This document shows positions 3,416 through 39,032 of a DNA stretch of 64,000 nucleotides, in pieces. The position numbers were made by a program, and so were the translations under genes. The notes beneath the pieces are model-generated. The model made no database searches. It saw nothing but the letters and a program-made list of their open reading frames with translations, and was not told where the DNA came from. The stretch is taken from the IMG/VR virus record IMGVR_UViG_3300017971_004694. One strand, given 5' to 3'. Source of the stretch: a virus. How positions within the stretch are numbered: the stretch's first letter is position 1; every line of letters begins with the position of its first letter.

Positions 3416-3419
3416 ATCA

Positions 3420-10930: not shown

Positions 10931-10968
10931 AATAAGAAGAGGTCCCGGAGCCCAATTGCTCCGGGACC
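10931..10968 (-). terminator. Rho-independent terminator after the scaffold gene
   Basis: Perfect 11-bp stem GGTCCCGGAGC/GCTCCGGGACC (10941-10968), 6-nt loop, followed on the minus strand by TCTTCTTATTT. Confidence 0.75.
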
Positions 10969-10978
10969 GTATTAACAA

Positions 10979-15232: not shown

Positions 15233-15235
15233 AGC

Positions 15236-15880
15236 TTAACGCTCCATCATTTTAATCAAACGGGCACGCCTAATAATATGCCCACGGATTTCACTAGCGT
15301 TTTTTCTTCCCAAAATGTTCTTACGAAAGTGAGTTTTCATTTGTTTGTCTATAATATTTTCGATACTCCTAATTATCTTGTCAGCCCTGTCCGAGGTGGC
15401 CATGATCTTGTTCACCTGTTCTGGATCTCCAAAGTCTTCGAAAGCCTCGATGAACTCCTCCAGAAACTCAGTAAGCTGTTGCATGCCATCCTGAAGAGCT
15501 GACTTAATTTGTCTTGTAGCAGTATCTTTTTCTAAAGGTTTAAGGATATGAATATATCCTGTATTTTGTTGAGGGGTTTCGGTCAAATCTTTTTCTTCTT
15601 CTTTTTGACCAGCGAAATCAATAATCAGTTTTGTATATCTATCTTTAACTTCTCTTTGAAATCTTCGAAGCAAATGTCTTATGCCGTATAGGTCTTCAGT
15701 GGAGGCAACCTGATTTTTCTTCAGCACATTAATGAGCCTATTGTCATGCTGTCTCGCAGCCCAAAGGTCTTTCAGGAATTTATCAAACATACGAATAGCC
15801 TCTTTGGCCGTCTGCTTTTCGGCATCAGAAATCTCGTATGAACGAAGTAAAGGTTGTTGAGCTTGCTTGTCAATACCCAT
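15236..15880 (-). CDS. Hypothetical helical head-module protein
   Basis: 214-aa ORF starting MGIDKQA; helical/coiled composition. Confidence 0.7.
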   Translation of the reverse strand: MGIDKQAQQPLLRSYEISDAEKQTAKEAIRMFDKFLKDLWAARQHDNRLINVLKKNQVASTEDLYGIRHLLRRFQREVKDRYTKLIIDFAGQKEEEKDLTETPQQNTGYIHILKPLEKDTATRQIKSALQDGMQQLTEFLEEFIEAFEDFGDPEQVNKIMATSDRADKIIRSIENIIDKQMKTHFRKNILGRKNASEIRGHIIRRARLIKMMER

Positions 15881-15929
15881 TAACAGACCTCGCGTATCAA
15901 AATATAACTCGTCAAAATTAATGGATAAA

Positions 15930-15937
15930 TATTAATA
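15930..15937 (-). promoter_or_regulatory. Putative late promoter TATTAATA
   Basis: Exact motif in an 86-bp gap, 50 nt upstream of the 15880 start. Confidence 0.45.
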
Positions 15938-15966
15938 GATTTCAGCTATTTCCATCTAACAAAATG

Positions 15967-16227
15967 CTACTGTGTGCTAATGTATTGGGAGGAAAATCCT
16001 TCCCAGGCAAACCCTTGATTCATGTCTTGAACAGTGCTGTCTCTTAAACCTACGATATTTTTAGCAAGTTCCGCGACCTCTTTATTATACTCTGGATCGT
16101 TGGTTTCGTTCTCCATGATGAAGCTGTGCAGAATATCCGTAACAACAGATGCGGCGCGTATGAATTTTTTGCGGCTTAGCTCATCAATTAGGTTAGACAG
16201 ATCGCCTATGACCTCGTTTTTTATCAT
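15967..16227 (-). CDS. Hypothetical protein (86 aa)
   Basis: Start overlaps upstream stop (ATGA); weak helical-hairpin motif. Confidence 0.65.
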   Translation of the reverse strand: MIKNEVIGDLSNLIDELSRKKFIRAASVVTDILHSFIMENETNDPEYNKEVAELAKNIVGLRDSTVQDMNQGFAWEGFSSQYISTQ

Positions 16228-17750: not shown

Positions 17751-18063
17751 GTATTTTGCCCAACTCGATTATCACCTGACCAACGAACCCTGGGTCAAGG
17801 CCCATTAGCAAGTTTTTGGTAATTCCAATAGCCTGACCAATAGCCGATGATGGCGGCAACCTTTTAGCACCCAGATCAACAGAAGATATTCTAAGCACTT
17901 TGCCTCTTAGCCTGCGCAAAAAGCGCCCGCGAAGTCTTACTGGAACACGGTGAAACATAAACTGAATAATCTTAAAGATAGACGCAGCCGCTTGGTCGGG
18001 TCTTGTGCCCGGCTGCTGAGCTTCCTTGCAAATGTCTCTTATGGAAAGTTTAATATCGGTCAT
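17737..18063 (-). CDS. Hypothetical basic protein (108 aa)
   Basis: Operon-coupled ORF; ICKEA motif near the N-terminus. Confidence 0.7.
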   Translation of the reverse strand: MTDIKLSIRDICKEAQQPGTRPDQAAASIFKIIQFMFHRVPVRLRGRFLRRLRGKVLRISSVDLGAKRLPPSSAIGQAIGITKNLLMGLDPGFVGQVIIELGKILGTV

Positions 18064-19734
18064 TTATTCATCAACCCTTTTGCCCTTTCTCCACTGATAG
18101 CAAGACCAGTATTTTGCTTTCGTTTTATTCTTGGCAGATTCGGTGTCACATTTGTGCCTAGCTCTGAAAGATTTACGACGCTTGGGGTCATCCCTCTTTA
18201 TTTCGAGTCCAGGATCGCCAAATTGAACCTTCTTTACCTTTTTTGTTTTGGGATCCATCACAAACACATGAAACTTCTTTTTACTACCAGATGGATTTCT
18301 TATTGGGTCATTAAGTTTCACCTTTTTGCCTTGATATTCGGCAGCTAGCACAGTTTTCTTCTTTGCAGATTTGTCTATACCATCATCAGCCCTAAAATCT
18401 TCTTCAGTAAGTTCTTGCGGCATATCCTTTTGTGTAAGTTCTTGCGGCATATCTCTTCGTGTAAGCGGCTGCGGAAACTGTCCCCTCTGTGGAGCAGGAG
18501 CAGGCTGCTTTTGCTGCTGTTGTTGTTGCTGTTGCGGCTGTTTTCCATACATTCTTCTCATATATTCCTGAAACTTAGCCGGATCTCTCAAACTCGTGCT
18601 TGGCCTAGCAGGAGGCTGTTGTTTAGCTGGTTGAGGAGCCGGTTGTCTTGGCTGTGGTTGAGGAGCCGGTTGTCTTGGCTGTGGTTGAGGTGCTGGTTGA
18701 GGTGCTGGTTGAGGTGCCGGCTGCCTCTGAGCTGGTTGCTGCTGTTGCCTCGCTCTGGTATTCTGAAGCCTAAAGTGATTGGCCCACTGATGAGCAAGAC
18801 CTTTATTTCTTATTGCCCTCACCCTTCTCTTTTGTTCCTCGGTCAACCCCTCCAGGTTTTGAGCCTCTTTTTCTATCCCATCGTCGGATTTTTGCCGTGA
18901 TTCAGCACGCATTATGTTTTGAAACACACCTTCAACCACCGCTTTACCTTTTTGTTCCCACATTTTTCTTAAAAGATCAAGAGCATTTGCGATTTTTGCT
19001 GGCTTGTAGCGCAGCATTAAGGCCTGAAAATATGTAATGTCCTGACTGTTAAGCCACTTGTCGAACTCAGTGTTTTTATTTACAAATTCTTTTCTCCATT
19101 GCATCCATTTTGCTTCTTGTTGTGCTGGTTTCGTCGGTTGATTGCGTTTTGCTTGCTGGGGCGCTTTCCATGGCGTACCAGGATATCCTAAATAACTATG
19201 CAACATTTTCCTAGTCAAATCTTTGATACGCCCTTTTTTCAAACTCGAAATTATATCTACTCCAGTTGCTTCCTGATATTGCTTAGCTCTCTGTGCCATT
19301 TCCGGGTTGGCTTTAAAGTATCTATCAACCCAATCTCCCTGAGCCTCTTTTTCTATGCCCAAAGAAGCCATAACATCCATAACATCTTGCTCTCCTTCAA
19401 ACAAATCCAGAAGATCGTATTCGGATCCACTGATCTCCTCTTCCTCTTCTATTTCATATGCAGGGGCTTCCTCCATAAAGGGAAGGACGCTTCTCTCTTT
19501 TTCCCTCTCTTCTTCCTCACGCCTTCCTTCATGGCGCTCAAACAAATAGGGCAGATCAAAGGGCTTTTTATTAGCAAGCCGCTTAAGGCGAATAGCTCTT
19601 GCTTCTTTTCTGCCTTGCTCTTCCAAAACCTTTGTGTGCTTTTTGACATATTCATCAATAATATCAGCCGCGTCAAAGAATCCCCTCTTATCGAGATAGT
19701 TTGCTAGGGCCACAAAATCTTTTAAGTTACTCAT
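18064..19734 (-). CDS. Modular head protein with Q/P-rich repeats and a basic C-terminal domain
   Basis: N-terminal hairpin motif, IEKEA x2, IDKSA. C-terminal AEYQGKKVKLN...VKKVQFGDP...RRKSFRARHKC...KYWSC domain resembles one I recall from T4-like cyanophages and giant viruses. Confidence 0.7.
   Translation of the reverse strand: MSNLKDFVALANYLDKRGFFDAADIIDEYVKKHTKVLEEQGRKEARAIRLKRLANKKPFDLPYLFERHEGRREEEEREKERSVLPFMEEAPAYEIEEEEEISGSEYDLLDLFEGEQDVMDVMASLGIEKEAQGDWVDRYFKANPEMAQRAKQYQEATGVDIISSLKKGRIKDLTRKMLHSYLGYPGTPWKAPQQAKRNQPTKPAQQEAKWMQWRKEFVNKNTEFDKWLNSQDITYFQALMLRYKPAKIANALDLLRKMWEQKGKAVVEGVFQNIMRAESRQKSDDGIEKEAQNLEGLTEEQKRRVRAIRNKGLAHQWANHFRLQNTRARQQQQPAQRQPAPQPAPQPAPQPQPRQPAPQPQPRQPAPQPAKQQPPARPSTSLRDPAKFQEYMRRMYGKQPQQQQQQQQKQPAPAPQRGQFPQPLTRRDMPQELTQKDMPQELTEEDFRADDGIDKSAKKKTVLAAEYQGKKVKLNDPIRNPSGSKKKFHVFVMDPKTKKVKKVQFGDPGLEIKRDDPKRRKSFRARHKCDTESAKNKTKAKYWSCYQWRKGKRVDE
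18629..18718. repeat. Coding tandem repeats: 27-nt x2 plus 12-nt x3 (QPRQPAPQP/APQP)
   Basis: ggttgaggagccggttgtcttggctgt x2, then ggttgaggtgc(t/c) x3. Confidence 0.9.
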
Positions 19735-20405
19735 TTATTTACCCCTTTTTTGCAGAAGTGCTCCCACCAATTGTCCGCATCCTTGGGCAATGCCCTATAG
19801 CTTTTTGGTGGCGGAAGTAAGAACCCAGTCCTAAGCATAGAAATTAACTCTTTCATCTTTTCGTATTCAAAGTCTCTATCATCAATCAAACCAACTGTAT
19901 ATTTGTCGTATAGCTTTGAAGCCATTAAGTATGCTCTGTCCGCAGAAACCATTTTGCGAGTCTTTGGTTTTTTAACAACTTCACCAAAGTCTTCAAACTC
20001 CAACACTTCAGGAACAAGAGCATCAATTCTTTCCGACAGATCCGTTTCGCCCTTGCTTTCCAAAAGGCTGGCCACTTTGCCCAGCCCAATAAGACATTCT
20101 TCTTTGGGTTTGCCTGATATAAAATGTTCTATACAATTGTTTATGGCATCGGCTATATGAACCATACCTTTATTTTCCAAAGCGTCTGAGACATAAGTCA
20201 TAGAGTCAAGAATAGAAGCTTTTGAATATTTAAAACCACGCACTTGTTTTAAGCGCTCTTCTGCCCGCTTTTTACCCGATTCTCCACCATAACAGCCAAA
20301 TTCTTGGTATTTGCCCTTCTTGGTTTTTTTATGTCCTATGACACAATAAACCGTTTTGCCTTTTCTTTTCCTAGTGACTATCTTGGCGAGCTTCGTAATA
20401 CTCAT
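19731..20405 (-). CDS. Head-module protein with basic N-terminal domain and two helical hairpins
   Basis: Likely start MSITKLA at 20405 (GGAGAGG SD); KTVYCV...EFGCY...KRAEERLKQV basic domain. Confidence 0.7.
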   Translation of the reverse strand: MSITKLAKIVTRKRKGKTVYCVIGHKKTKKGKYQEFGCYGGESGKKRAEERLKQVRGFKYSKASILDSMTYVSDALENKGMVHIADAINNCIEHFISGKPKEECLIGLGKVASLLESKGETDLSERIDALVPEVLEFEDFGEVVKKPKTRKMVSADRAYLMASKLYDKYTVGLIDDRDFEYEKMKELISMLRTGFLLPPPKSYRALPKDADNWWEHFCKKGVNK

Positions 20406-20415
20406 ATCCTCTCCA

Positions 20416-20757
20416 TTATTTATTATACTTTCTGGAACCAAACATTTTATTAGTCAAAGAAGCATTTACGGCCTTATGGAAATCAAACTCAGGAAGCCAT
20501 ATTGCTTTAATGTTTCCTCCAGATGAATCACAGTTTATGTAAATTTCTCCAACATCGGGCACGTCAAGGGTCAACATATCACTATCAATATCCACATCTA
20601 CAACCGTTCCTCTAAAGAAACCGGTGTTATTCAGTGAGAACTGGTCAAAGTTAATGGATTCAATGTCTACACCCATCCACACACATATTTCTCTACCTAA
20701 AAATTTATCTCTAATGAAAGTAGCCATACCCATGATTATGCCCTCATAAGTCTTCAA
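20416..20757 (-). CDS. Small beta-barrel protein (Sm/SH3-like?)
   Basis: LGREICVWM...FRGTVVDVD...MLTLDV..GEIYIN...IKAIW pattern of short beta strands. Confidence 0.4.
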   Translation of the reverse strand: MKTYEGIIMGMATFIRDKFLGREICVWMGVDIESINFDQFSLNNTGFFRGTVVDVDIDSDMLTLDVPDVGEIYINCDSSGGNIKAIWLPEFDFHKAVNASLTNKMFGSRKYNK

Positions 20758-20782: not shown

Positions 20783-23700
20783 TTATGCCGCCAAAAGTCT
20801 CTGCAATTTTCCCTTTAAGTTCAAATACCTGGGGACATTTTCTCTAAACTCATACACCAAGGCCCATCTTCTTCCTGCTGCGCTTGGGTGTTTGTCTTTT
20901 TTGGCTTCTTCGTATCTGGACTTCAGCCTTTCAATCTCTTCTTCTATAGACTCAATCATGCCAGAAATCTCTTCTTTTTTTAAGAACCTTATCCTTTCAT
21001 CTGGATCTGGAACATTCAAAAGATTTTTCCATCTTTTCACAACATTAGGTTCTCTTTGCTCGGGTCTTATATAGAGCGGATCCCAACGAAGTGGGCGCTC
21101 CCTATCTAAAATCTTCCCGGCAGTTTTCTGATCTATTTTGCCCAAAAACTTAATGTCTTTTTTATACTTGTTCCAGATCTCCTCCGAGAATAATATCTCA
21201 TGGACACCCTCTAATTTATGCAAGCCGCCGGCTTCTTTAATCATTTTCATAGGAACTTTATATGTATAGACATTTCCAAAAATGCCGTGGCGTGGGCCAA
21301 CTGTTCTCCAATTGGAAGTCATAAATAAGCCTACACTAATGGGCTCTTCTGTTTGCCTTGATCTTACCCAAGAGTGCTGACCAAGTTCAGCGTATTCTGG
21401 GTCTATCTTTTCCCAAAGCTCAGGATCAGGCAACCATCGTGTCTTGGGTCTGGGAATAGGTGGTCTTGGCCCTACGTGATACAATATTTTGTATTCTCCT
21501 TCCCTACGCACAGCCTCTTTCACAAACTCCCCTTTAGCAAATAGAAAGTCGTCCGCCATGTCCTCGCTTTCACCTATCTTGCTCCAATCCGCATCTGGCG
21601 GCATTAACCTATGTTTTTTGTATAGGTCTAGTTTGACTTCTTTATATCTTTCCATATCCCCTTCTTGTAATGCCCTGTGCTTTTCAAGTATTTGTCTATG
21701 CCTCTCTTCAACCGGGGCATCTAAGATGCGCTTGAGACCTTTAAGCTGATATTCCACATGCTCTTTGGGTCTTACTTTAAGATCTATAGAAATCCCTTCA
21801 GATGTCTCATATGTGTGCTCAACATAAGCGCCCTCTTTCACATTGGAAAATGGTATGCCCGCCTCTGTTAGCATCTTGCTGGTTCTCTCAACATCGTCGG
21901 TTCCAACTTGAAAGTCTATGTCCGATACGCCGGGGATGTTAATTCCAGCCGCCGTTGAACTAACACAAACAGGATCAATCCCAAGTTCCTTGAGTCTCTC
22001 TTGCTCTCTTTTCATTATCCTGAACATCTTGCGGCGTTCTCTGGCGCTCTTTAGCAAGACTTCATATTCTTCTTTGGTGTATTTTGCCGCTTTCTTGAAT
22101 AGTTCTTTTTTCCTGTCCTCATCTATTCTTGCGGCATCCATCTGCTTGTCTGTGGCCACCACCGCCTTGATGGTCTTTTTCTTCTGCATCACGGCTTTGG
22201 CTAGTCGATGGTAGCCGTCAATAACCTCGCCCTTATATACCAAGATCGGATATTTCAAATCCGCGTCCTTTATTCTTTTAGTATCATCCTTATATTTCTT
22301 AGGATTCTCAAGCACCTCTTCTGGACTATGGGCACCCTTCCCTGGACCAACCTCATCACCCCATACTTTTTCTTTCATGTTCCATTCAAGAGTGCTAATG
22401 GGGACATTCTCCGCTTTGTTGTCCGCAGTGATTTCTATTAACATATCCACGGAATATGCTCTATCACTATCCGTGTAAGTCTGCCCAGCCTTCTTCTCAA
22501 GATCATCTTCCTTGGCTTCCATGATCATCCACTTGTTTCCATCAGTCTTGAAGACCTTGTAGGCGCCCTTTTCCTTTTTGCCCTTCAACTTAAAGACAAT
22601 TTTGCTGCCGCTCCAGGAGATTTCATTATAGGTTCCAGAGTCATAAACTTCCACTTTTCCAGCACCATATTCGCCCTTGGGAATCTCTCCCTTGAACTTC
22701 ATGTATGAAATTGGGTGATCTTCCGTCTTCATGGCCAACAGCTTTTCTTTGCCTTTGGGAAGCTTGTGTTTTGGGATTGCCCATGAAGACATAGCACCCT
22801 GATCGTTTTCAAGTCTCAAATCGAAGTGTTCCCCAGCCCTCTCAGCCTTGTGGCGTTGAATTACAAACCTGTGCTTATTCTTTCCTTCTTCTTTGCCCTC
22901 TGGTTCTGGGGTCTCTTCAAACTCTCTTTTTTTTTTGTAAGTTGAAAGCGGGTCTTTCGCTGCCAATCTCAATTGGGCTTTCTTTCTACCCTTCATTTTG
23001 AAAAGTTCCATATCCAGAATATCCTCTATATTATATGGATATTCCTTCATAGTTCTTTCAATCTGCTTAGAGAACCTGGCCCAGAATTCTGGATTGTCTT
23101 TTTGAAGCACAACAAGCTCATGGAACTTATCCCAGAAATCAGCACCTATCTTATTATTCTCAAGCTCGTTTATCGCCTTGATTGGCATCCAGTCATACTT
23201 CCCAGGCATTACCAAAGCTCTCACAAGCATATATTTGCCCGGAGTAAACTGATTGGTCTTGGTGGTTAATGAGATTCCATTGTAGTCGTGTTCTTTCATG
23301 CCGCTAATGTCATCTTCCTTACCAGCCACCATTTTCTCAGCTTGCCATTTTGGTACAGCCTCAAGGCCGCCAATTTGTCTTGGTTCCAATCCTTCCAGAT
23401 CGGTTTCGTCTAAGTTCCAGATGTCCAATACTCTAAGCAACCTTGGCGTAGTTCCTTTTCTCCTCTGGCGTATTTCTTTACCCTGTAGGTTAAACCTGGC
23501 ACCAAGCGGAATGGCATCCTTGCGAGGAAGCTTCAGTCCATCTTCAACTTTCGTTATGAAATATGTGCCTGGGCCATCAGAGGATATACCATCTCTCTTC
23601 ATGGATACAAGCCACTCATCTAAACCAAACCTTTCATATGGGTTCTCAACGGACAACATTTTATCCACCCAACGCTGAAGTAGAGGTATAGAAACTTCTT

Positions 23701-26700
23701 GTTTTTTGAATTTCTCATTGATCTTCTTCTTCCTCTCTTCAAGTTTGTTCTGCATTTCCGACGAGCCCGTGCCCTTATTTTTCTTGACCTCTGCCTCAAG
23801 CATAGCCCTGGCCATCCAACCAACATAATGTAGTGGATCGTCAAAGGCATAGTCCTTTGTGGCACTCAAAAGAAATAGTTTTCTCAGAAGAGCAGCTCGT
23901 CTCTTTGCGGATGGCGCTTTAACCTCCCCTTCCTCTATTTTCTCTTGTAGGAAACTCAGCTCGTCATAATAGTCATAGTATTGTCGAACGGCACAGCTTT
24001 GGCCTATTGGAGCCACTTCGTTAAAAGCAACCATCAAATCTGCATGAGGATTTTGCTCTCTATGCTCTTGCGGAATCTCTTCCCTTCTCAGCTCTTTTTC
24101 AACCGTTCCCCACATATCTCTTGTGTGAGGTCCCCACAAAAAACCAGCAGCCGGAACCTTTTGTTCCTTTCTGGCTCGGCCAATGGTAAATCTTACACCA
24201 TCATGCGGACAGATAAAGGGAACCTCGTCCAGCCATGCTGGCGGAGTTCTTCCCTCTCCCTCGGGAGATGGCACAGCCTCTTCTTCTCTGGCTTCCTGTT
24301 CTGTTATTTCTTCTTCCATTGGGGGCACAAGTCCGTAATATCTTTTAAGCTTTGCTTTGATTTCCTGGCCTCTGCCTGTTTTCCAAATGTGGTGGTTCCA
24401 ATCAATAGAATTCAAGGGAACCCTACCACCTGGACAAGTTGGATTTGGGCACCAAGTATGAGACCAAGGCACTGCGGCTTGGGCTGAATATATTCCCATC
24501 TTTCTTTCTATATCTTTTTTCTCCTGCGCCAATCCACTTATTTTTTCATTAAGGTTTGTGAGCAATCTGTTCAGATCTCGTATCTTGCGCTCACCACTTT
24601 CTTTATCTTTAGGATCTGTATATGTGTCCTTGGCCTTGGAAAAGAATCTCAAAAGCTTGTTGGCTTTCTCTTGTTCTCTTTGCATAGTAGTTAATTTGCT
24701 ATCCAAGCGAGGCAGTTCTACGTTCCTCAGGCCTTCTACTCTTCCGGCGCAGTCTGGACACGCCCAGGTGCGTTTTTTTGTCTTTTGCATCTTGGGTGGA
24801 AGGGAGTTTTTCTCAAGGGTTTTACATATAGAGCACACTGGATTTTTTGATACTGTGTAGCCCTTATCCTTGGCCACTTCCTTGACCATCTGTCTGTCCA
24901 GGATTTTATAAATCCATTTATCCATGTTTATTGGTTCTACATTAGCCCTGTCCTCAGAGAAATATTCATTGGCCAAATCTGTGGTTTTCTCTATAATCTT
25001 CTGGATATAAGGTTTGGCCTCAGGCTGCTCTTCGAAATCAAGTTCTTGATTTCTTAGTTTTCTGGCCCTCTTCGTATCTATATCATCAAACATGCCAAAT
25101 GGCGCGTCAGGGAAAGTTCCAAATTGCTTGTTCAACCTGCCAGAATTTCTTATAAACCACATGCGACCTATAGATCTAACTATGTAAGGCAGAATCCAGC
25201 TCTGTAGGAGATGAGGCTCCTTCTTCAATATTTCCCAAGCTTTTGGATCATTAAGCAATTTTCTAAACTTAGGCCCTTCTTCCATTTTGTCTGGTGTAAA
25301 AAAGTCAAGCGCCTCCGAGGACATAGGGGGCGGATCTGGTTCTTTCCAAGTAGCCGTGCCCTTTTCGTCCACAGGAACCTCAAGTTTGGGGGCAAAGTAT
25401 GGCTTTGCCTCCGCAAGATGCCTTGCCTCTTCTTCTAGAGCTTCCATGCTATATTCTTCTACTACGTCCTCTTCTTCTTCCTTTTTGGCTTCTTTCTCCT
25501 CCTCGGACATCAGTTTTGAAATTTCTTCCCAGCGCTCTTCGAACTTTTCAGGATTGGCAAGCTCAACAAGCTCGCCGGCCATCTTTCCAGGGACAGCGGC
25601 GTATAGCTCAAAGCCGTTCATCATTCTATTATATCCCTTCTCCGCTTCTATGTCGGCTGCTTCTATATCATCCATATCAATGAAGGATTTGTTTAAATAC
25701 TCCGTTAAAGCTTCTGGATCAAGCGTCATTATTCTCTTCACTTCCTCATTGGCCTTACGAGCAAGGTATTCGTCTATTAGTTTTTTGATGGTGTGCTTTT
25801 GTTTTTCTGTAATCTCTCTGACTGCAGGAGGAACAACCTCTTTCTCCCTTTCAGCTTTTCTTTCTCGTCCAAGCAAATATGCAACCTCTTCTGGAGTCAA
25901 ATCTTCTAGTTCTGTAAATTCTTCCTCTTCTTCCAGCTCCTCTTCTTCCTCTTCAGGAATGGCAACTTCTTCCAGCTCTTCTTCCTCAAAAGCAACCTCT
26001 TCTGGCTCTGGCTCTGGCTCTGGCTCTGGCTCAGGTTCTGGCTTGGGAGCTTCTTCTACAACCGGAGGCTTTTCCTTAATCTCTTCTGGAACGGGAGCTG
26101 GAATTGGCTCCTCGCTTACATCCTCCCATTCGTCATCCTCCTCTTCCTCGGAGATTTCCTCAAGAAACTCCTCTTCCTCTTTCGGAAGCTCTTCAGGGAG
26201 CGCCTCTTCCTCTTCAAGTTTGGCCAACTCCTCTTCCTTTTCTTTTAGAAACTCCTGGTATGGTTGCTTCATGCCCTCAAGCAAACCCTGTTCTTCTTTT
26301 TCTTTTCTCCACTTCAGAAACTCATCAAGTTCTTCTTTACCTGGCGCCTCTCTTTTTGGCTTGGGCTCTACCCCTTCTTCCTCAAGTTCTTCGTATGTTC
26401 CACCATAGGGCTTCATCTTTTCGCCAAACATCTCAACGGCTTTTTCGCTTGGAAGTGGTCTTGGCTCAGTTGGCTCCACGAAGCCCTCTTCTTCCCTTTC
26501 GCGTCTTTGTTCCCCTTTAAGCCTCTCGATTTCAGCTTCGTCAAGCCCAGCTGCGAATTTTTCTATTCTATCTAAAACCTCACTAGCTTTTAGCCATGCT
26601 TCATATTTTTGTTTGGCTGGCCCCAAAGTCTCTGCGCCATTAAGGAAATTGGCGAACACCCAGGCAAAATTCTCTGAGTCGTCTGGGCCAATAGCCGTGA

Positions 26701-29700
26701 ACAACAAACCATCTTTTTCAATAGGGAGCCCCGTCCAAATACCCTTGGAACGGCGGACACTGCCCATAATCTCTGGCCAACCAGTAACTTCTCTTCCTTT
26801 CATAACGCCTGCCTCGGCAGCAAGAAGTGGGGCGTGGCAAATCATAGCGACGGGTTTCTTCTGACGCACGAATTTCCTAAGGAGTTTCTGTGCTTTCTTA
26901 TCCTTGGAATATTTAACCATGCCCATGCCGCCAACTACAAAGAGGGCATCATAATCTCCAACATCAACACTAGCAACCTTTTTGCTTATATCTACGGCTG
27001 TGCCCCTATCTCCAGTGGCTTTCAGCCCAGATGAAGCAGTATCAACATCAAACTTAAACTTCTCTACAAATAGATTGAGCGGAGTGGTATATTCAATCTC
27101 ACAAAAATCTTCTGGAGAAAGTATCATTAAAATCTTTTTGGCTTTGGCCTCTTTTATTATTTCTCTTCTAGATAAAGCCATTTTATCATCCGCATCAAAA
27201 TAAGTGCCGATTTCGCCAAAATCCACTCCCTTGGTTGGGAAGAAAGGAATTGCTCCCGTGTCTAAGCCACCGGGCTCTTTATCAAGATTTTCTGGGAGCA
27301 TGGTGTATTTCTTTCCATATGATTGTGGGAACTGATCCGAATCATCCTGCTTTCCGCCCATTGGCCCTTTCACTTTGCCTTGGGTCTCTCCAATGGAACC
27401 GGGAACACGGATGCTGCCTTTATTATGGAGCGTAGAAATATCACTCCTCATGCCGTCGCCTTTTACGACGCCAGTCTTCACATCTGGCCAATCCTCATTA
27501 AGCTCGTTCAGAAGCGTTTTAAGCTCTGCTCTGAGCTTATCGATTCCAACCTCTTTGTCGAGCTTGAACTCTACGTGTAGCCCCGTTCCGCCACTCTGGA
27601 AGATGGTTGGCGTGGAACCATACTTGGCCTTCAGCTTTTTGGCGAGCGCCCTGGCATACTTCTTGGCTTGGTCTAATGAATATTTGCCGTGAATATCCAA
27701 ATCAACAAAGCCCAGGTTTGTCTTTGTTCCGAATACCTGGTGGAACGAAAGAATGCGCCTTTTGACCCAGTAGAAATAGTTGTTTGGGTTCTCGGAGTTT
27801 CCAGGGTCATCGTTGGTTATTTTGATTTCTTTTCCATCATGATTTCTCTTGAGTATTTTCTGGTTCTTGCCTATGCCAATATACACCAATACCGGCTTGT
27901 CTTTGATGCGAGACATGATTTTCTTACGGATTTCCGGCTTTTCATAATGGCTTTTAATCTGACCACGAGTAAGCTTGGTTCCTTCTTTGTCAATTAGCAC
28001 CTCAGACATTTTCTCCTGATCTTCATCGCCATCGTCATCCGCCATCTGAACGCCTTCATAAACATCAAATCTAATAACCATATAACGCTTATTAGTACCG
28101 AATCTTCTTTCAAGCGCCTTGGCTATACGCTTGCCAAAAGCCTTTTCTATGCGCTTGCTGCTCATCCTCTCTTTGGCAGTAATAAGCAGATCACAAACAT
28201 GCGCTCCGCCATAAGTGCGACACTTCACCACTTCTTCGACACTCACGGGAACGTCACTTGTGCGAATAGTCATCCTGCGCTTCCCGTTTTTAATCGCATC
28301 TACATATTGAGAAGGGAAATAAAGAGCACCTGGCTCGGCATAAATGGCAGCGTGTTTAGACAAAGTTAGGCTCGCCTCTCTTCTTTCTTCACCGCTCCAC
28401 TTTCCAGGGGCAAACTTATCCTTTAAAGTTTCCCAATTTTCCAATACAAAATTAGCTATTTCTCTGCTAAGATAATAACCAAACTCCTCATCTGTGATTT
28501 CTTTACCATATATTTGACTATACTCTTTGCGAGCCTGCTCTTTGAGAGCCGGGTTCATCTCAAACTCTTTTTCGGTCTTATGATATAGTTCACCAATCAC
28601 TTCTCGCTGAATAGGATTAATGACAATTTCCATCGTGTCTTCTTCCACAAACTCGTCTTCATCCTGCGCTCTTTTACTAAGTATCGAAAGCTCGCCTACC
28701 AGTCGTCTGGATGGAAATCCACCCATACCACGACCACCTGGAACACCCCTTAGCAACTCGCTTGCTATAGGAGCCAGGTCGGGTTGGGTTTGCATCAGCT
28801 TGGTAAGAACTTTCTTGAACCTGGAAGAATATAGATAATGTAGGTGTCCTGGTCCAAAAGGTTTTCTGCCATACAGGAATCTCTGCACACGACCAGGGCC
28901 GCTTCCATTGGATATGATGATTAACTGGTAGATATTGTAGGCGTTGGGCGCAGTAGTATCATAGCCAGACTTTTGCACATATCTGGTTGTAGCTCTAATC
29001 TTGTTCATAAAATCTTGTCTTGAAGTGTTTTCTATTAGATTGCCTACAGCCTTATCTTTTCTTATGTTTTTGGAGTTAAACTTACGCTTAAACTTGGCGA
29101 AGGAACTTGGGTTATTCTTCATCACGATGAGCCCTGCAAGCTTACTGCGTGCTACATTTCCCGTAATGTAAGTTGTGAATATTTTTTGCACCTCTCTTCT
29201 AACGGCAGGTGAGTCCGCGCCCAATTGCCTAAGAATCTCTGGCTTAAGTGTCTTGCCGACATACCTTCCATCCTTTTCCAACACAACCATGTTTGGGCTG
29301 TATCTTATGAAAGTTCCTTCTCTGCGCCTTACTCTGGATCTTGGGTTCTTTTCTAAGAAGGCTTTGATAATTCTTGGATTAATGTCTTGATAATCCCAAA
29401 TATTTTGCTTGCGAACCGCCTTCAAAGCCCTCTTCCAATCACTAGACATTTTCTTAAATTCGCTAGGAGAAATGCCAGTTGCGCTTTGAGCATTGGGCAT
29501 TCTAGAAAGCATCCCCATAAAATACGGACCATGAACCTGAGTTGGGCCAAAGGAAGTTCCAGAGTCTCCAATAACATGCGTTCTTCCACCCGATTCCAAC
29601 TGAGCCATGATTCTAAACATTTTTTCGCCATCGACACCGCCTATCGTCCCAAGCCTGCCCGGAGCATGCGTGATGCCCAGCATCTTTTCAAGCCTTCGTA

Positions 29701-30190
29701 TAATAGTATCTACATAAGAGGCAGTCTTAACAAGCATAGCTCTTTTGGATAGATGCTCTTTAAGCAATTCAATATCTCCCTGATCCTTTGGCCTGTTCAT
29801 TTTCTCCTTCCACTCTAATACATGTTCGGGCGCCCAATGTTTGAATCCAAGATGTTCTCTGGTAGTGACACCCTCGCTCATAAAATCTTTGTCTCCCACC
29901 ATCCAAGGCCCAGTAAATATTTCTATTTCTCCCACATCAGTTTGGAAAGACGCCCTGGGATTTCCTGGTCTTATTTCATCAACGACCGCATCGGGATGCT
30001 GCTCAATTTTCTTAAACTCATCTGGGTCCGCATGGACATCTAAATCATTAATGCTTTTTACACCCAAGGCCCCAAGAACGCCGCTTCCACCAATAGTGAT
30101 TTTGTTGATGTCTACTCCAACCTCATCGAGTATTTCCTTGAGGTTTCTAATGAACGCCTCGTGCTTTTCTTTTTCTGGATCTCTGGGCAA
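20783..30190 (-). CDS. 3135-aa polyvalent/polyprotein: NTase, lysozyme-like, ASCH, LigD primase-polymerase, DJ-1/PfpI, acidic plus Zn-finger region, LigD 3'-phosphoesterase, ParB-like, second NTase, ART-like
   Basis: GGSGVLG...NDLDV; QLESGG...SFGPTQ; LYFPSQYVDAIKNGKRRMTIR; FVDLDI...QSGGTGLHV...IRVPGS; YDALFVVGG...AMICHAP; TYKKKREFEETPEP...FVIQRH...HFDLRLE...SWAIPK...TEDHP; ADLKYPILV...IDGYHRL; SSTAAGINIPGVSDIDF; LYHVG...LFMTSN...VYTYKV...EIL. Confidence 0.85.
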   Translation of the reverse strand: MPRDPEKEKHEAFIRNLKEILDEVGVDINKITIGGSGVLGALGVKSINDLDVHADPDEFKKIEQHPDAVVDEIRPGNPRASFQTDVGEIEIFTGPWMVGDKDFMSEGVTTREHLGFKHWAPEHVLEWKEKMNRPKDQGDIELLKEHLSKRAMLVKTASYVDTIIRRLEKMLGITHAPGRLGTIGGVDGEKMFRIMAQLESGGRTHVIGDSGTSFGPTQVHGPYFMGMLSRMPNAQSATGISPSEFKKMSSDWKRALKAVRKQNIWDYQDINPRIIKAFLEKNPRSRVRRREGTFIRYSPNMVVLEKDGRYVGKTLKPEILRQLGADSPAVRREVQKIFTTYITGNVARSKLAGLIVMKNNPSSFAKFKRKFNSKNIRKDKAVGNLIENTSRQDFMNKIRATTRYVQKSGYDTTAPNAYNIYQLIIISNGSGPGRVQRFLYGRKPFGPGHLHYLYSSRFKKVLTKLMQTQPDLAPIASELLRGVPGGRGMGGFPSRRLVGELSILSKRAQDEDEFVEEDTMEIVINPIQREVIGELYHKTEKEFEMNPALKEQARKEYSQIYGKEITDEEFGYYLSREIANFVLENWETLKDKFAPGKWSGEERREASLTLSKHAAIYAEPGALYFPSQYVDAIKNGKRRMTIRTSDVPVSVEEVVKCRTYGGAHVCDLLITAKERMSSKRIEKAFGKRIAKALERRFGTNKRYMVIRFDVYEGVQMADDDGDEDQEKMSEVLIDKEGTKLTRGQIKSHYEKPEIRKKIMSRIKDKPVLVYIGIGKNQKILKRNHDGKEIKITNDDPGNSENPNNYFYWVKRRILSFHQVFGTKTNLGFVDLDIHGKYSLDQAKKYARALAKKLKAKYGSTPTIFQSGGTGLHVEFKLDKEVGIDKLRAELKTLLNELNEDWPDVKTGVVKGDGMRSDISTLHNKGSIRVPGSIGETQGKVKGPMGGKQDDSDQFPQSYGKKYTMLPENLDKEPGGLDTGAIPFFPTKGVDFGEIGTYFDADDKMALSRREIIKEAKAKKILMILSPEDFCEIEYTTPLNLFVEKFKFDVDTASSGLKATGDRGTAVDISKKVASVDVGDYDALFVVGGMGMVKYSKDKKAQKLLRKFVRQKKPVAMICHAPLLAAEAGVMKGREVTGWPEIMGSVRRSKGIWTGLPIEKDGLLFTAIGPDDSENFAWVFANFLNGAETLGPAKQKYEAWLKASEVLDRIEKFAAGLDEAEIERLKGEQRREREEEGFVEPTEPRPLPSEKAVEMFGEKMKPYGGTYEELEEEGVEPKPKREAPGKEELDEFLKWRKEKEEQGLLEGMKQPYQEFLKEKEEELAKLEEEEALPEELPKEEEEFLEEISEEEEDDEWEDVSEEPIPAPVPEEIKEKPPVVEEAPKPEPEPEPEPEPEPEEVAFEEEELEEVAIPEEEEEELEEEEEFTELEDLTPEEVAYLLGRERKAEREKEVVPPAVREITEKQKHTIKKLIDEYLARKANEEVKRIMTLDPEALTEYLNKSFIDMDDIEAADIEAEKGYNRMMNGFELYAAVPGKMAGELVELANPEKFEERWEEISKLMSEEEKEAKKEEEEDVVEEYSMEALEEEARHLAEAKPYFAPKLEVPVDEKGTATWKEPDPPPMSSEALDFFTPDKMEEGPKFRKLLNDPKAWEILKKEPHLLQSWILPYIVRSIGRMWFIRNSGRLNKQFGTFPDAPFGMFDDIDTKRARKLRNQELDFEEQPEAKPYIQKIIEKTTDLANEYFSEDRANVEPINMDKWIYKILDRQMVKEVAKDKGYTVSKNPVCSICKTLEKNSLPPKMQKTKKRTWACPDCAGRVEGLRNVELPRLDSKLTTMQREQEKANKLLRFFSKAKDTYTDPKDKESGERKIRDLNRLLTNLNEKISGLAQEKKDIERKMGIYSAQAAVPWSHTWCPNPTCPGGRVPLNSIDWNHHIWKTGRGQEIKAKLKRYYGLVPPMEEEITEQEAREEEAVPSPEGEGRTPPAWLDEVPFICPHDGVRFTIGRARKEQKVPAAGFLWGPHTRDMWGTVEKELRREEIPQEHREQNPHADLMVAFNEVAPIGQSCAVRQYYDYYDELSFLQEKIEEGEVKAPSAKRRAALLRKLFLLSATKDYAFDDPLHYVGWMARAMLEAEVKKNKGTGSSEMQNKLEERKKKINEKFKKQEVSIPLLQRWVDKMLSVENPYERFGLDEWLVSMKRDGISSDGPGTYFITKVEDGLKLPRKDAIPLGARFNLQGKEIRQRRKGTTPRLLRVLDIWNLDETDLEGLEPRQIGGLEAVPKWQAEKMVAGKEDDISGMKEHDYNGISLTTKTNQFTPGKYMLVRALVMPGKYDWMPIKAINELENNKIGADFWDKFHELVVLQKDNPEFWARFSKQIERTMKEYPYNIEDILDMELFKMKGRKKAQLRLAAKDPLSTYKKKREFEETPEPEGKEEGKNKHRFVIQRHKAERAGEHFDLRLENDQGAMSSWAIPKHKLPKGKEKLLAMKTEDHPISYMKFKGEIPKGEYGAGKVEVYDSGTYNEISWSGSKIVFKLKGKKEKGAYKVFKTDGNKWMIMEAKEDDLEKKAGQTYTDSDRAYSVDMLIEITADNKAENVPISTLEWNMKEKVWGDEVGPGKGAHSPEEVLENPKKYKDDTKRIKDADLKYPILVYKGEVIDGYHRLAKAVMQKKKTIKAVVATDKQMDAARIDEDRKKELFKKAAKYTKEEYEVLLKSARERRKMFRIMKREQERLKELGIDPVCVSSTAAGINIPGVSDIDFQVGTDDVERTSKMLTEAGIPFSNVKEGAYVEHTYETSEGISIDLKVRPKEHVEYQLKGLKRILDAPVEERHRQILEKHRALQEGDMERYKEVKLDLYKKHRLMPPDADWSKIGESEDMADDFLFAKGEFVKEAVRREGEYKILYHVGPRPPIPRPKTRWLPDPELWEKIDPEYAELGQHSWVRSRQTEEPISVGLFMTSNWRTVGPRHGIFGNVYTYKVPMKMIKEAGGLHKLEGVHEILFSEEIWNKYKKDIKFLGKIDQKTAGKILDRERPLRWDPLYIRPEQREPNVVKRWKNLLNVPDPDERIRFLKKEEISGMIESIEEEIERLKSRYEEAKKDKHPSAAGRRWALVYEFRENVPRYLNLKGKLQRLLAA

Positions 30191-30228
30191 ATCATCGGCG
30201 TCACTCTTTTTAGCTTCCTTGAACTTAT

Positions 30229-31206
30229 CTATGTTTTAGAATGAAACTCATGCATGGTTGCGTCCTTAGGGCTTTTGTCTTCCCTGAATCTCACAAACTT
30301 TTGGTGCCTAAGACCGCCAGGCTGTCGCTCTTGGAAACCTATCTCAATTACAAAAGGCCCTTTCTTGAGCTTACTTTTAATCTTCCCCTCGTCTTCTTTG
30401 GAGAAGTTGCTAATCTCGCTCATATGATAGAGCTTCCCTTTATAATATTGCCCATAGAGAGCCTTTAGCTTATCTTTTTCGCTCATCTCGTAATCAAATA
30501 CGACATAATCATCACTTTCGCTTTTACCAGCACCACCTTTATATTTATACATAATCTTAGGTGGCTTGGGCTCAGTTTCACCCTTGCTCTTATATTCATA
30601 TGGTTTATCTTTCAGCTTTAGCACAATACCTTCTCCGCCAGTGTTGACGGCTGTGTTCATGGCTTTCTGCCAATCTCCAAAGCTATAATTCTTAGTAAGT
30701 TTTACCTTATCACTCTCTTTCACAAGACTTTGTAGTGCCTTGCGGCGCTCTCCAAAGCCCTTGTCTGCTACTTTGTTGCCCTTGCTCCAAAGCACATCGT
30801 AGAGATGTATCTTCACGGAACCCGGAAGTTCCTTGGCCTTTTCAGCAGATTTTTCTGGCGAACTACCAGCTAAAGAAGTGACCTTGCCTACGTCTTGTTT
30901 ATTTTTATCCCAATATACCAACTCACCTTCAACGTGCGTTCCTTCAGGAAGAAAGCTAAGCGCCTCAACAAGCTCGGGGAAGTTTTCGGTTTTCTCATCA
31001 CCTCTGCGGCTATAAAGACGAACCTTTCCACCAGTTCTGATGATCTGAACTTTCCAGCCATCCAACTTCTCTTCTACCACAATATTTTCACGATTGAAAT
31101 CCTTTAGGAGTTCATCCACATCTTTAATCTCAGTGAGACGCATTAAGGACACTGGCCCAAGGCCATCTGGAGACGCTCGTAGAGATAAGGCAAGCTTGGT
31201 AGTCAT
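30229..31206 (-). CDS. ATP-dependent DNA ligase (LigD/LigC-type ligase domain, standalone)
   Basis: Motif I EEKLDG, III VEGELV, IIIa LYDVL, IV EGIVLK, V YKYK; OB domain ending LRHQKFVRFREDKSP. Confidence 0.92.
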   Translation of the reverse strand: MTTKLALSLRASPDGLGPVSLMRLTEIKDVDELLKDFNRENIVVEEKLDGWKVQIIRTGGKVRLYSRRGDEKTENFPELVEALSFLPEGTHVEGELVYWDKNKQDVGKVTSLAGSSPEKSAEKAKELPGSVKIHLYDVLWSKGNKVADKGFGERRKALQSLVKESDKVKLTKNYSFGDWQKAMNTAVNTGGEGIVLKLKDKPYEYKSKGETEPKPPKIMYKYKGGAGKSESDDYVVFDYEMSEKDKLKALYGQYYKGKLYHMSEISNFSKEDEGKIKSKLKKGPFVIEIGFQERQPGGLRHQKFVRFREDKSPKDATMHEFHSKT

Positions 31207-31212: not shown

Positions 31213-32553
31213 TTACTCCTTAGCTTGTTTCATTATAGATATTAGCCTCAACATACGGGCCGTTCTTTCTGGGGCTTCAGGTGCTTCAGGCTTAACTTCA
31301 ACCTCTTCTCTAATATCTTCAGGCTTAACTGGCCTTAATCTTCTACCCTCGTAAGTTCTAATAAACCATTCGTTAAGCTTTTTGATAAAATCTTCATCTG
31401 TGATCAACTCGTGGTAAATGCCCTTGGGCTGTTTGACCAGAGCTATTCTACCAGCATATTGGCTTCCAGGCTTATATACAACCCATCTCCTACTCTTGAG
31501 TATGTCTTCCGCTGTGACTTCCTCTTTTGGTGCTTCTTCAGGCTTCGCTGCCTCTTCAGGCGGAGGCGGAGCCAGGCTTGGTTCTGGAATCTCTGATGGC
31601 GGCGGAACTTCAGGCTTGGCTTCTTCGGGTTTAGCCTCTTCCGGTTCTTTACCTTTAATCTTGGTAAGCTCGTCCACTTTCATCAAATATACCCATTTTG
31701 AATCTTGCAGGACAACCTGCCAGAGTGTTCCCTTACCAAATATTTTTGCAAACCCAACTGGGTATTTTCCTTCGTGTGGAATTACCTTAACCACATCATT
31801 TTCTGGGTCATCTTCTACAATGTGTCTGCCCAAGTATTTGTTAAACCTTTCCTTACTCACTCTTACTTGTCCAAGAGCGTCATTTTTCTCTACAGAGCTG
31901 ACTCGTGGATCTGGAGTATACCAACCCTTTTCTCTTTTCAGCCCTTCCTCTGGAGCAGAAACTTCTGGTTTGCCAGGCTCACTGACCTTTTCCTCTTCTA
32001 TGTCTTTGGGATCTTCGCCGCTTTCAGTCACCCAAGAAGGCTGCGGAACTTTTTCAAGCTCGCTTTTTGGAACAAGCCCCTTCTTTTCCGCTTGCTCTTT
32101 TACGCCAAGCAGATAAGCAGCAATCTTGCTATAGCCTTCGTCAAAATCTCTCATGATTTTGGGCACATCTTTCGTGTAGAAGTTTTGAAGTTCGGCAACC
32201 TTATTTCTCCAATCAAAAAGCTCATGGTTTTTAAGGTGCTTCTTAATCTCCTTGTTTATATTTTGCATATCATCAAGGCGCTCTTCTAATTCTTCTTGTG
32301 CCTCCTTGGCTCTTCTAAACAACTCTTTATATTCGCCATAGAAGAACATTTTGATTTTGCCTTTAAGGCGTTTCCAAATGGTTGAAAAAATACCTGCCTG
32401 CTTTTTGAGATCGCCATCAAACGCGGCGCACTTAACAACATACTCATCTAGTAGGCTGGCTGCCTCAACCTCACCAATTTCATCGAAGAAGTTGGCCATG
32501 GCCACTGCCTCTTCAGGTGTAGGTGGTTCAGGAACTCCTCTTTTATAAGCCAT
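31213..32553 (-). CDS. Head-module protein (446 aa)
   Basis: N-terminal hairpin ANFFDEIGEVEAASLLDEY then LKKQA; coiled coil; P/E-rich linkers. Confidence 0.7.
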   Translation of the reverse strand: MAYKRGVPEPPTPEEAVAMANFFDEIGEVEAASLLDEYVVKCAAFDGDLKKQAGIFSTIWKRLKGKIKMFFYGEYKELFRRAKEAQEELEERLDDMQNINKEIKKHLKNHELFDWRNKVAELQNFYTKDVPKIMRDFDEGYSKIAAYLLGVKEQAEKKGLVPKSELEKVPQPSWVTESGEDPKDIEEEKVSEPGKPEVSAPEEGLKREKGWYTPDPRVSSVEKNDALGQVRVSKERFNKYLGRHIVEDDPENDVVKVIPHEGKYPVGFAKIFGKGTLWQVVLQDSKWVYLMKVDELTKIKGKEPEEAKPEEAKPEVPPPSEIPEPSLAPPPPEEAAKPEEAPKEEVTAEDILKSRRWVVYKPGSQYAGRIALVKQPKGIYHELITDEDFIKKLNEWFIRTYEGRRLRPVKPEDIREEVEVKPEAPEAPERTARMLRLISIMKQAKE

Positions 32554-32565
32554 AAGTTTCCTCCA

Positions 32566-36400: not shown

Positions 36401-36401
36401 T

Positions 36402-39017: not shown

Positions 39018-39032
39018 TTTCAGCACTCTCCA

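Follow-up and report, generated by a model that had tools for sequence, protein, structure and literature searches.

When a phage strings many unrelated enzymes on one polypeptide, does the chain act whole or is it taken apart into its enzymes, and where in the infection would they act? The question is raised by a gene on the minus strand of a 64,000-nucleotide stretch of DNA (the window) from IMG/VR virus record IMGVR_UViG_3300017971_004694. A first-pass annotation, made from the sequence alone, had read positions 20783-30190 (minus strand) as a multi-enzyme polyprotein of 3135 amino acids (aa) with putative cleavage linkers between its domains. The open reading frame (ORF) listing and the translation bear out a stop-free frame of 3135 aa with a TTG start; it is the 3' part of a longer gene, from 31206 to 20783 on the minus strand, that encodes 3474 aa with an ATP-dependent DNA ligase first. 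We consider it probable that this chain is a cargo polyprotein packaged in the phage head and cut by a phage protease at short peptides of the LSKRA type (hereafter tags) between its modules.

Observed in favour of this reading are the structure of the gene, the identities of its domains, the statistics of the tag motif, the shuffling of modules among relatives and the synteny of a head module. The earlier multi-enzyme polyprotein interpretation is supported in part: it stood up when predicted folds, retention of the linkers, gain and loss of cassettes and head synteny were checked. It had missed the fused ligase, and the nucleotidyltransferase (NTase) and ADP-ribosyltransferase (ART) identities that it proposed are still provisional.

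One gene and its modules

At the join between ligase and polyprotein an A4 run is one base short in the window copy. The polyprotein frame is open upstream of its TTG, reading NIDKFKEAKKSDADD, as far as a stop that overlaps the last ligase codons (TCT AAA ACA TAG). Window sequence occurs in runs of sediment and seawater metagenomes, whose read-derived contigs were taken from Logan. In the contigs of X1 and X2 (depth ~170) a further T follows plus-strand position 30233, so that A4 becomes A5, and with this base added the ORF spans 3474 aa without a stop. X1 and X2 are possibly one data set filed twice, and either is possibly the window's source sample; X3 has no coverage at 30234-30237. The protein search gave 16 full-length relatives, and 13 of them have ligase and polyprotein in one polypeptide (Pfam and BLAST mapping); the ligase module is absent from P0012, P0016 and P0017. 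The two are also joined in nine IMG/VR loci, and they are fused in all 26 relatives that have a ligase and whose sequence includes the N-terminal part. The junction of the relatives (MHEFHVENIDNFKVA...; ...MHEFHVENIDNFKVAKASFMLSKRA...) matches the window's ligase frame (MHEFHSK) in its first part and the polyprotein frame (NIDKFKEA) after that. Given that the relatives are fused, that their junction bridges both frames and that the X1 and X2 contigs hold the missing base, ligase and polyprotein are one gene.

A second single-base deletion, near 12974, splits a head-maturation protease and scaffold-like gene further downstream. The contigs of all three runs, X1 to X3, have one base more at 12973/12974, where the window has the separate ORFs 12727-15198 and 10979-12871 (the latter 630 aa). 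The repaired frame encodes 1406 aa; the fused counterpart in related locus L007 has 1385 aa, and the two parts are also fused in L010. Programmed frameshifting was considered at both places. A -1 frameshift between ligase and polyprotein was rejected as unnecessary, there being no slippery heptamer and A5 being found in the contigs of two runs, and a frameshift near 12974 was rejected because no slippery site is present and the contigs carry the extra base. With no slippery site at either place, we take both deletions in the window's assembly to be errors or else rare variants. They are a caution for annotation, as two single-base deletions in the window copy split real genes.

The modules of the chain run in the order leader, ligase, small NTase, lysozyme/transglycosylase-like, helical bundle, ASCH, LigD-type primase-polymerase, DJ-1/PfpI and acidic spacer, followed by an 840-aa core, LigD 3'-phosphoesterase, ParB-like, second NTase and a terminal cassette with H-Y-E residues. 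Their positions are given below with the residue numbering of the 3135-aa ORF; pLDDT is the predicted local distance difference test value of AlphaFold2 (AF2), and AEP stands for archaeo-eukaryotic primase.

30229-31206, minus strand: ATP-dependent DNA ligase, first module; Pfam DNA_ligase_A_M (PF01068), E 3e-32, KLDG adenylation motif
30191-30240, minus strand: ligase/polyprotein join; A4 run (plus-strand T 30234-30237) one base short
29753-30190, minus strand: cassette 1, small nucleotidyltransferase-like, aa 1-146
29720-29752, minus strand: double linker LSKRA-M-LVKTA, aa 147-157
28682-29719, minus strand: lysozyme-like / lytic transglycosylase-like module, aa 158-503
28667-28681, minus strand: linker LSKRA, aa 504-508
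28364-28666, minus strand: acidic stretch, then small helical bundle, aa 509-609
28349-28363, minus strand: linker LSKHA, aa 610-614
28055-28348, minus strand: ASCH (PUA-like) module, aa 615-712
28019-28054, minus strand: acidic "ADD" junction QMADDDGDEDQEK, aa 713-724, pLDDT <50
27311-28018, minus strand: AEP primase-polymerase, LigD Pol type, aa 725-960
27146-27310, minus strand: disordered junction ADD...MALSRREIIKEA, aa 961-1015, pLDDT <50
26567-27145, minus strand: DJ-1/PfpI module, aa 1016-1208
26552-26566, minus strand: IEKFA element, aa 1209-1213
25424-26551, minus strand: acidic Glu/Pro-rich low-complexity region, aa 1214-1589
22901-25423, minus strand: conserved core, aa 1590-2430
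22502-22900, minus strand: LigD 3'-phosphoesterase, aa 2431-2563
22487-22501, minus strand: linker LEKKA, degenerate LSKRA, aa 2564-2568
22103-22486, minus strand: ParB/Srx-like cassette, aa 2569-2696
22088-22102, minus strand: linker LFKKA, aa 2697-2701
21527-22087, minus strand: second nucleotidyltransferase-like cassette, aa 2702-2888
21512-21526, minus strand: linker FVKEA, after MADD, aa 2889-2893
20786-21511, minus strand: terminal cassette, of a family without a name, aa 2894-3135

The ligase module opens with a short leader, MTTKLA-LSLRA. In P0007, P0008, P0010, P0011 and P0012 the N-terminus holds an additional zinc-ribbon module of 80-100 aa (CSWC...C..CE) before the ligase, joined to it via ...ADDS[LI]SP.

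The lysozyme-like, ASCH, primase-polymerase, DJ-1/PfpI and LigD phosphoesterase domains called in the first pass are borne out by profiles or folds. The lysozyme-like module is predicted at pLDDT 84-95 over aa 170-494, and within it (aa 176-491) E199 is invariant in the conserved motif ES...GDSG.SFG.TQV...AYN; all relatives have the module. In VIA it matches chitosanase and the lytic transglycosylases Slt, MltC and MltE at Z 6.6-7.8, which is moderate where folds are helical, and the call is therefore made from motif and fold together. The stretch that follows (aa 509-609) had been passed over as an acidic spacer; it contains a folded helical bundle (aa 523-596, helices 526-593, pLDDT ~87). 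The ASCH module (aa 619-712) matches E. coli YqfB (VIA Z 11.5; Foldseek E 1e-4), and Pfam ASCH was matched in 6 of 17 relatives. For the primase-polymerase, Pfam LigD_Prim-Pol (E 4e-4) and the TIGR score are under their cut-offs; the fold matches the M. tuberculosis LigD PolDom (Foldseek E 3e-5) and P. aeruginosa LigD Pol (VIA Z 11.3), and the catalytic DxD, SGGxGxH (SGxGxH) and RSD motifs are nearly invariant among relatives.

DJ-1/PfpI (aa 1018-1177) is identified by Pfam (E 8e-30), TIGR01382 (E 1e-24) and PDB profile matches, with the Cys-His pair (MICHAP) intact. The phosphoesterase (aa 2445-2547) matches Pfam LigD_N (PF13298) at E 5e-27 and 94.7 bits (cut-off 31.1) and, by profile, the LigD phosphoesterase structures in PDB (3p43, E 2e-43 to 1e-42); TIGR02777 gives 137.5 bits, below its cut-off of 144. 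Its motifs H..H...HxDLRLE and EDHP..Y are intact. In the relative P0013 (L006 18101-18478) there is an intein with LAGLIDADG and splicing matches; it lies within the catalytic motif of the phosphoesterase, since that domain resumes with SHFDLRLE after ...HN.

Between these enzymes lie the acidic region (aa 1214-1589), which is poorly conserved and on whose repeat the read contigs break, and the core (aa 1590-2430), which is present in all relatives with invariant Cys and His residues and a mean AF2 pLDDT of 78. The core contains a zinc ribbon (CxxC...CxxC), an antiparallel coiled-coil hairpin of 90 residues and a further His/Cys cluster, along with a beta domain and helical domains. It has no informative relative in PDB (profile and Foldseek searches), VIA wide or BFVD; the matches are to generic coiled-coil hairpins (CT398 and HP0958, Z 11-12.5; Rad50 coiled coil, Z 10.7), along with one uncharacterised phage protein (E 3e-4).

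The ParB-like call and both NTase calls are tentative and come from motifs or weak matches. The first NTase has the motif GGSG...DLDV, of the pol-beta NTase type (GS...DLD), and matches phrog_12854 (E 4e-5). Few alignment rows cover aa 1-146 and the region is predicted at pLDDT <50; a PDB sequence search was empty, and the Atlas neighbours are unnamed 140-aa proteins, in unnamed clusters. The second NTase has the motifs SS...G...SDIDF and IDLK and matches Pfam NTP_transf_5 under the cut-off (E 0.012). The ParB-like cassette has a DGYHR motif, matches phrog_17560 (E 9e-16) and, by tblastn, Erwinia jumbo-phage genes annotated "putative ParB". A protein of phage PA5oct, 30% identical to this cassette, is annotated "structural protein, ESI-MS/MS", which may be a weak pointer to a location of the cassette in the virion.

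The terminal cassette, first described as ART-like, belongs to a family of 161 relatives or representatives, many of them stand-alone. Its conserved H12 and Y82/Y84 and invariant E105 are compatible with an ADP-ribosyltransferase of the H-Y-E type, and there is a weak Atlas lead to PARP (score 0.87). No Pfam match was obtained in 51 family members and no sequence match in PDB, and ART is not confirmed; the cassette may be an H-Y-E ADP-ribosyltransferase-like domain.

Tags at the module borders

The linkers of the first-pass annotation fit a loose pattern, [LIVFM]xKxA, with 12 matches in the ORF against 5.2 ± 2.2 in shuffles, which is only about 2.4-fold enrichment. Two of the 12 (LLKSA at 2712 and MIKEA at 2983) are inside conserved folds, and a roughly 2-fold excess is found window-wide. 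For these two reasons the loose pattern was rejected as stand-alone evidence, and weight is placed on the strict motif and on positional data only. The relatives give the canonical tag, [LIV]SKRA, usually after K-K-A-[ST]-F-x, i.e. KKA[ST]F.[LIV]SKRA; this phage also has degenerate [LIVF]xKxA forms. Across 24 related polyproteins (60.8 thousand residues) there are 49 occurrences of the strict motif [LIVFM]SKRA where shuffles give 0.3, about 160-fold, with Phe at position -2 in 31 of the 49, and it is in this strict form that the linker claim holds.

The strict sites avoid the interiors of modules. Although interiors make up 74% of residues, 31 of 33 sites in 16 relatives fall outside them (P 2e-16), and the remaining two are at the core-to-phosphoesterase border. 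A DNA-level recombination signal was considered as the source of the repeats and rejected: the 72 tag sites of the loci and the window comprise 67 distinct 15-mers and use every Ser, Arg and Ala codon class, so it is the peptide, rather than the DNA, that is under selection.

Predicted folds do not span the linkers at aa 504 and aa 610. LSKRA-504 is within a stretch of pLDDT <50 (aa 495-522), as is LSKHA-610 (aa 597-618), with confident domains on either side. The relatives keep the linkers, often in more canonical form. At aa 504 they have [LI]SK[RK]A and at aa 610 [LIVF]SKRA, directly before ...YxEPGxLYFPGQY. The junction at aa 961-1015 becomes ...ALSKRxIKKTA, the counterpart of IEKFA is IWKxA, directly before the acidic region, and the column of LEKKA reads LSKRA-GQTYT in aligned relatives. 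For FVKEA, P0003 has LSKEA before the same terminal cassette. In the window and in its closest relatives, P0002 and P0003, several tags are thus degenerate versions that stand at the alignment columns of canonical ones.

The MADD element that had been noted in passing belongs to a second, acidic delimiter. ADD occurs 33 times in the family against 10 ± 3.2 expected (3.3-fold). Its occurrences cluster at the N-terminal edge of the ligase (ADDS[LI]SP, with MYADDS... as the start of one relative) and at the border of ASCH and primase-polymerase, where A717, D718 and D719 are nearly invariant. The best reading of these patterns is that a short peptide code marks off the modules, with the canonical LSKRA-type tag and ADD as its two putative delimiters.

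Between these delimiters cassettes have been gained, lost or moved. The backbone of the relatives consists of ligase, transglycosylase-like module, ASCH, primase-polymerase, core and phosphoesterase, and it is constant apart from the three proteins without ligase. DJ-1/PfpI is present in most relatives and absent from several, and presence and position vary for the ParB cassette, both NTase cassettes and the terminal one (16 proteins, 14 loci). The ParB cassette occurs at three positions (after the ligase, after the primase-polymerase and at the C-terminus), cassette 1 is at another position in P0004 and P0006, and the second NTase cassette is found in P0002, P0004 and P0014. A comparison with P0003 bears on what is exchanged. 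In the window the first NTase is flanked directly by ...KEAKKSDADD on one side and LSKRA-M-LVKTA on the other, and P0003, without the NTase, reads ...KEAKKNDADD-FILSTRVAS-LHKTA; the unit gained or lost is therefore the domain with its own tag.

In L009, a relative of 442 kb, the chain is encoded as three translationally coupled genes with overlapping stops and starts (TGATG, ATGA) and good ribosome-binding sites. Since the split is at module borders, modules can work as separate proteins. The third gene starts M-TDPLAKYKSKREF (M-TDPLAKYKSKR) where other members have LSKRA-KDPLS.YKKKR.F, which suggests that a new N-terminus may lie just after the Ala of the tag. The same gene (L009 16782-18908) continues with the phosphoesterase, ISKRA and more modules, and ends ...PLSKRADSLPLSQR. 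One of these modules has two H-x-T motifs (HMTLLY and HMTVCY); paired H-x-T motifs are typical of 2H phosphoesterases.

The head module and the candidate protease

The minus strand carries all long ORFs of the window. Upstream of the chain the order is an 874-aa cupin-containing protein, large terminase, portal, a 446-aa protein without an assigned function, and the ligase. Downstream come small uncharacterised ORFs, then the protein of 16224-17750, the protease-match ORF 12727-15198 and 892-1929.

36402-39026: cupin-containing 874-aa protein, upstream of the terminase
34550-36436, minus strand: large terminase, PHROG E 8e-57
32566-34536, minus strand: portal, PHROG E 5e-55
16224-17750, minus strand: cargo protein with N-terminal ...FS-FSKRA, zincin-like HEMGH, and peptidoglycan-binding-like and CX5R protein tyrosine phosphatase regions (Pfam)
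10979-15198, minus strand: head-maturation protease and scaffold-like protein, split by the second single-base deletion
892-1929: possible capsid protein, weak Phage_capsid_4 match

Terminase, portal, polyprotein, cargo genes and protease form a conserved head module, whose order is kept in each related locus that extends to them. No deposited phage has a terminase more than 25% identical to this one, and related IMG/VR contigs are up to 442 kb long; given these and the head genes, the locus is placed in the head module of an uncultured huge tailed phage. Among cultured phages, tblastn found no relative of the chain as a whole. The far end of the window (52373-63997) encodes RecA, DnaJ with full J, Zn and C domains, a protein with a trigger-factor C-terminal domain, and a Pol III alpha of the DnaE type that includes a PHP domain. 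Huge phages typically have chaperone and replication genes of this sort. The portal ORFs of L003, L006 and L014 have a doubled length of 1000-1440 aa, and the one scanned (L019 1-1283) has intein and LAGLIDADG matches.

Ligase, primase-polymerase and phosphoesterase are ordinary replication and repair activities, and genes for Pol III alpha and RecA are found in the window as well, as would suit a cytoplasmic multi-enzyme repair or replication factor that is expressed among the late genes and never packaged. The head synteny and the muralytic domain make us regard such a non-virion role as very improbable: the gene stands between portal and protease/scaffold genes in all loci that reach the flanks, a muralytic domain has no substrate in the cytoplasm, and the tag is common to head-module ORFs and not to the replication region.

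The tag is indeed carried by neighbours of the chain. In related loci the cargo ORFs downstream of the polyprotein have a strict tag 4-25 residues after the preceding stop, and again internally; they include a phosphatase, CCA/polyA-polymerase-HD and other multi-domain proteins. The polyA-polymerase/CCA-adding-type NTases with an HD domain are LSKRA-tagged in L016 (19906-22311) and L020 (13108-14181), and the window has an ORF with a PolyA_pol head domain outside the head module (42251-43030). Upstream, the cupin protein has an internal LSKRA at aa 519 and its L007 relative has two, so that it is probably another tagged cargo chain. The terminase is without a tag, strict or loose, and the portal, which has no strict tag, has a loose one at aa 32 and another at aa 104. 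A loose tag falls in the first 40 residues of about 13 of 20 head-region ORFs (892-20757 and 31213-34536) versus 2 of about 24 ORFs in the 40-64 kb region. The head-region leaders are 10-40 residues long and end in [FLI]xKxA, often ...E-[FL]xKxA; ORFs 9333-9983 and 10237-10731 have a nearly identical leader of 35 residues. Genome-wide, the complete 442-kb relative has 9 strict motifs against 1.6 expected; five belong to the head module, three form another cluster at 250-258 kb and one lies elsewhere. This distribution supports a tag of head-module proteins without being exclusive to them. The second cluster (G001, L021-L043, 249507-258200), far from the head module, has two tags in a 1221-aa ORF and one, at residue 15, in a 90-aa ORF.

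Tags so close to the start, 3-15 residues in cargo ORFs, are what one would expect of a targeting signal. The chain could accordingly be an uncut polyvalent protein in which LSKRA and ADD serve as docking or sorting tags (for scaffold, portal or ejection channel) or as flexible hinges. The N4 virion RNA polymerase is packaged unprocessed (Iyer et al., PMC5512222), and several tags of the window are degenerate without a sign of gene decay. We nonetheless judge an uncut chain unlikely. A tag at nearly every module border, up to four per chain, is superfluous for targeting one chain; the natural gene split in L009 falls exactly after the tag position; a loose tag is found at the junction of protease and scaffold-like protein, where tailed phages normally cleave; and a folded chain of 3,474 aa would be hard to thread through a tail channel.

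If the chain is cut, the most likely cutting enzyme would be the head-maturation protease of 12727-15198, which matches phrog_18299 "head maturation protease" (E 1e-12, aa 158-264). It is favoured because of the loose tag at its own junction with the Pro-rich scaffold-like part, which in three phages reads LKG(D/E)(G/S)(L/F)xKTA-QPP (LKGDGLTKTA-QPP in the window), and because of the leaders of the small structural-region ORFs. DJ-1/PfpI was also considered as the processing protease and was rejected, since relatives without DJ-1 keep their tags.

The zincin-like HExxH domain of 16224-17750 offers a different enzyme. ETIxHExxHxG...GE is conserved in the counterparts of this cargo protein from five related loci, which themselves carry one to three LSKRA tags, and embedded metallopeptidases have been proposed as processors of polyvalent proteins (Iyer et al. 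2017, PMC5512222). Cutting by this domain, or by a host protease, and possibly only after ejection, is an alternative to which we give little credence: the zincin-like region matched no peptidase family in Pfam, and the loose tags at the protease/scaffold-like junction and in the small structural-region ORFs indicate the maturation protease.

As a head-packaged and processed polyprotein, the chain would be built into the prohead with the neighbouring tagged cargo proteins and cut at the tags, probably right behind the Ala and most likely by the head-maturation protease, and the freed enzymes would exit the capsid with the DNA. The muralytic module would then aid entry into the host, ligase, polymerase and phosphoesterase may form a Ku-independent, LigD-like kit that heals and seals ends on the incoming genome, and the variable cassettes may counter host defences. 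Healing and sealing of the incoming genome would be a reasonable role, a purely inferential one, because phages Omega and Corndog circularise by end-joining at entry. We advance more tentatively, and with some doubt, a further proposal: a two-delimiter code (...F.LSKRA/...ADD) would enable huge phages of this lineage to string together swappable, capsid-loaded enzyme cassettes, and cutting would yield, among other products, a complete Ku-independent LigD-type kit of ligase, polymerase and phosphoesterase that goes into the host along with the DNA and reseals or circularises the genome before phage expression, a pre-packaged answer to restriction and CRISPR nucleases.

Several points weigh against packaging and processing, of which the first is that cleavage, the identity of the protease, virion location, injection and the biological roles are what we infer. 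Most window ORFs share a similar excess of the loose pattern. The window itself has just two canonical linkers (and LSKHA); the rest are degenerate, the core-to-phosphoesterase site is LRLAA, and the border of ASCH and primase-polymerase never has LSKRA. The protease is identified solely via its PHROG match, with no Pfam or PDB sequence match, and the conserved zincin-like domain in the neighbouring cargo protein is there as an alternative. The very short leaders also fit a pure targeting tag, and four of the nine strict tags of the 442-kb relative are outside its head module. Finally, Ku (PF02735) was not found in four related phage records, including the 442-kb record rated 100% complete, in a search whose control genome was positive and which covered part of the window ORFs; classical non-homologous end joining can thus not be assumed.

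Comparison with known systems

If the tags are cut sites, the locus would bring to tailed phages a polyprotein strategy that is usual in RNA viruses; we know of no other case of it for tailed-phage capsid cargo. A portable delimiter would, if cut, allow cassettes to be swapped between phages. The locus would also be the first case found of a phage with all three LigD activities as probable virion cargo, and without Ku, which is relevant to the protection of long genomes when huge phages enter their hosts. For uncultured huge phages, the tag would provide a rule for predicting the injected proteome from sequence alone, and a defined substrate for finding the specificity of the maturation protease.

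The prohead proteases of T4, phiKZ and SPN3US cut after Glu, at LxE or IxE in T4 and at AxE in phiKZ-like phages. The motif described here is basic (SKRA) and separates whole enzymes, unlike the cargo processing of T4, phiKZ and SPN3US. In those phages the internal proteins and Alt of T4 (protease gp21) and the ejection proteins of phiKZ (protease gp175) and SPN3US (protease gp245) lie inside the capsid, have short protease-recognised motifs that often close an N-terminal leader, and are ejected into the host (PMC10052503, PMC7411985). In SPN3US all identified gp245 cleavages except the self-cleavage of the protease remove N-terminal propeptides, and no description is given of a chain cut into many enzymes (PMC10052503, PMC7411985). 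The likeness to these systems lies in the tags near the N-termini of several head-module ORFs and in the protease match within the same module.

The chain also resembles the polyvalent proteins, each a single chain of a phage or conjugative element that joins many (2-15) effector or enzyme domains of unrelated kinds (Iyer, Burroughs, Anand, de Souza and Aravind 2017, PMC5512222); for these, delivery with the DNA and possibly proteolytic processing have been proposed (PMC5512222). At least eight domains were identified independently in this one phage ORF. It combines lysozyme, ParB-like, NTase and possibly ART domains, and the mosaic varies between relatives in the NTase, ParB, DJ-1 and possible ART cassettes. 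Unlike polyvalent proteins, the chain has no hub domain (MuF, zincin-like metallopeptidase, virion RNA polymerase, ArdC, SNF2 or N6A methylase) in Pfam, PHROGs or NCBIfam, and no HExxH. The text of Iyer et al. 2017 mentions no "ligase", LigD, DJ-1 or ASCH and no regular delimiter peptide, and has Primpol and pol-beta NTase only in conjugative-element proteins (PMC5512222). Literature searches for the tag motif and for phage LigD cargo returned nothing relevant, and no description of a regular delimiter.

With bacterial LigD the gene shares an ATP-dependent ligase, an AEP polymerase and a 3'-phosphoesterase that are encoded together with their catalytic motifs intact. It differs in that its three modules are dispersed along 3,400 residues and interleaved with unrelated enzymes and probable cut sites, that the polymerase and phosphoesterase score below curated equivalog cut-offs, and that no Ku partner was found in the four related records. 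Mycobacteriophages Omega and Corndog circularise their genomes with Ku and the host LigD (Pitcher et al. 2006, as cited in PMC12848934). Those phages supply Ku and borrow LigD; the present phage, with its own LigD-like modules, is the opposite.

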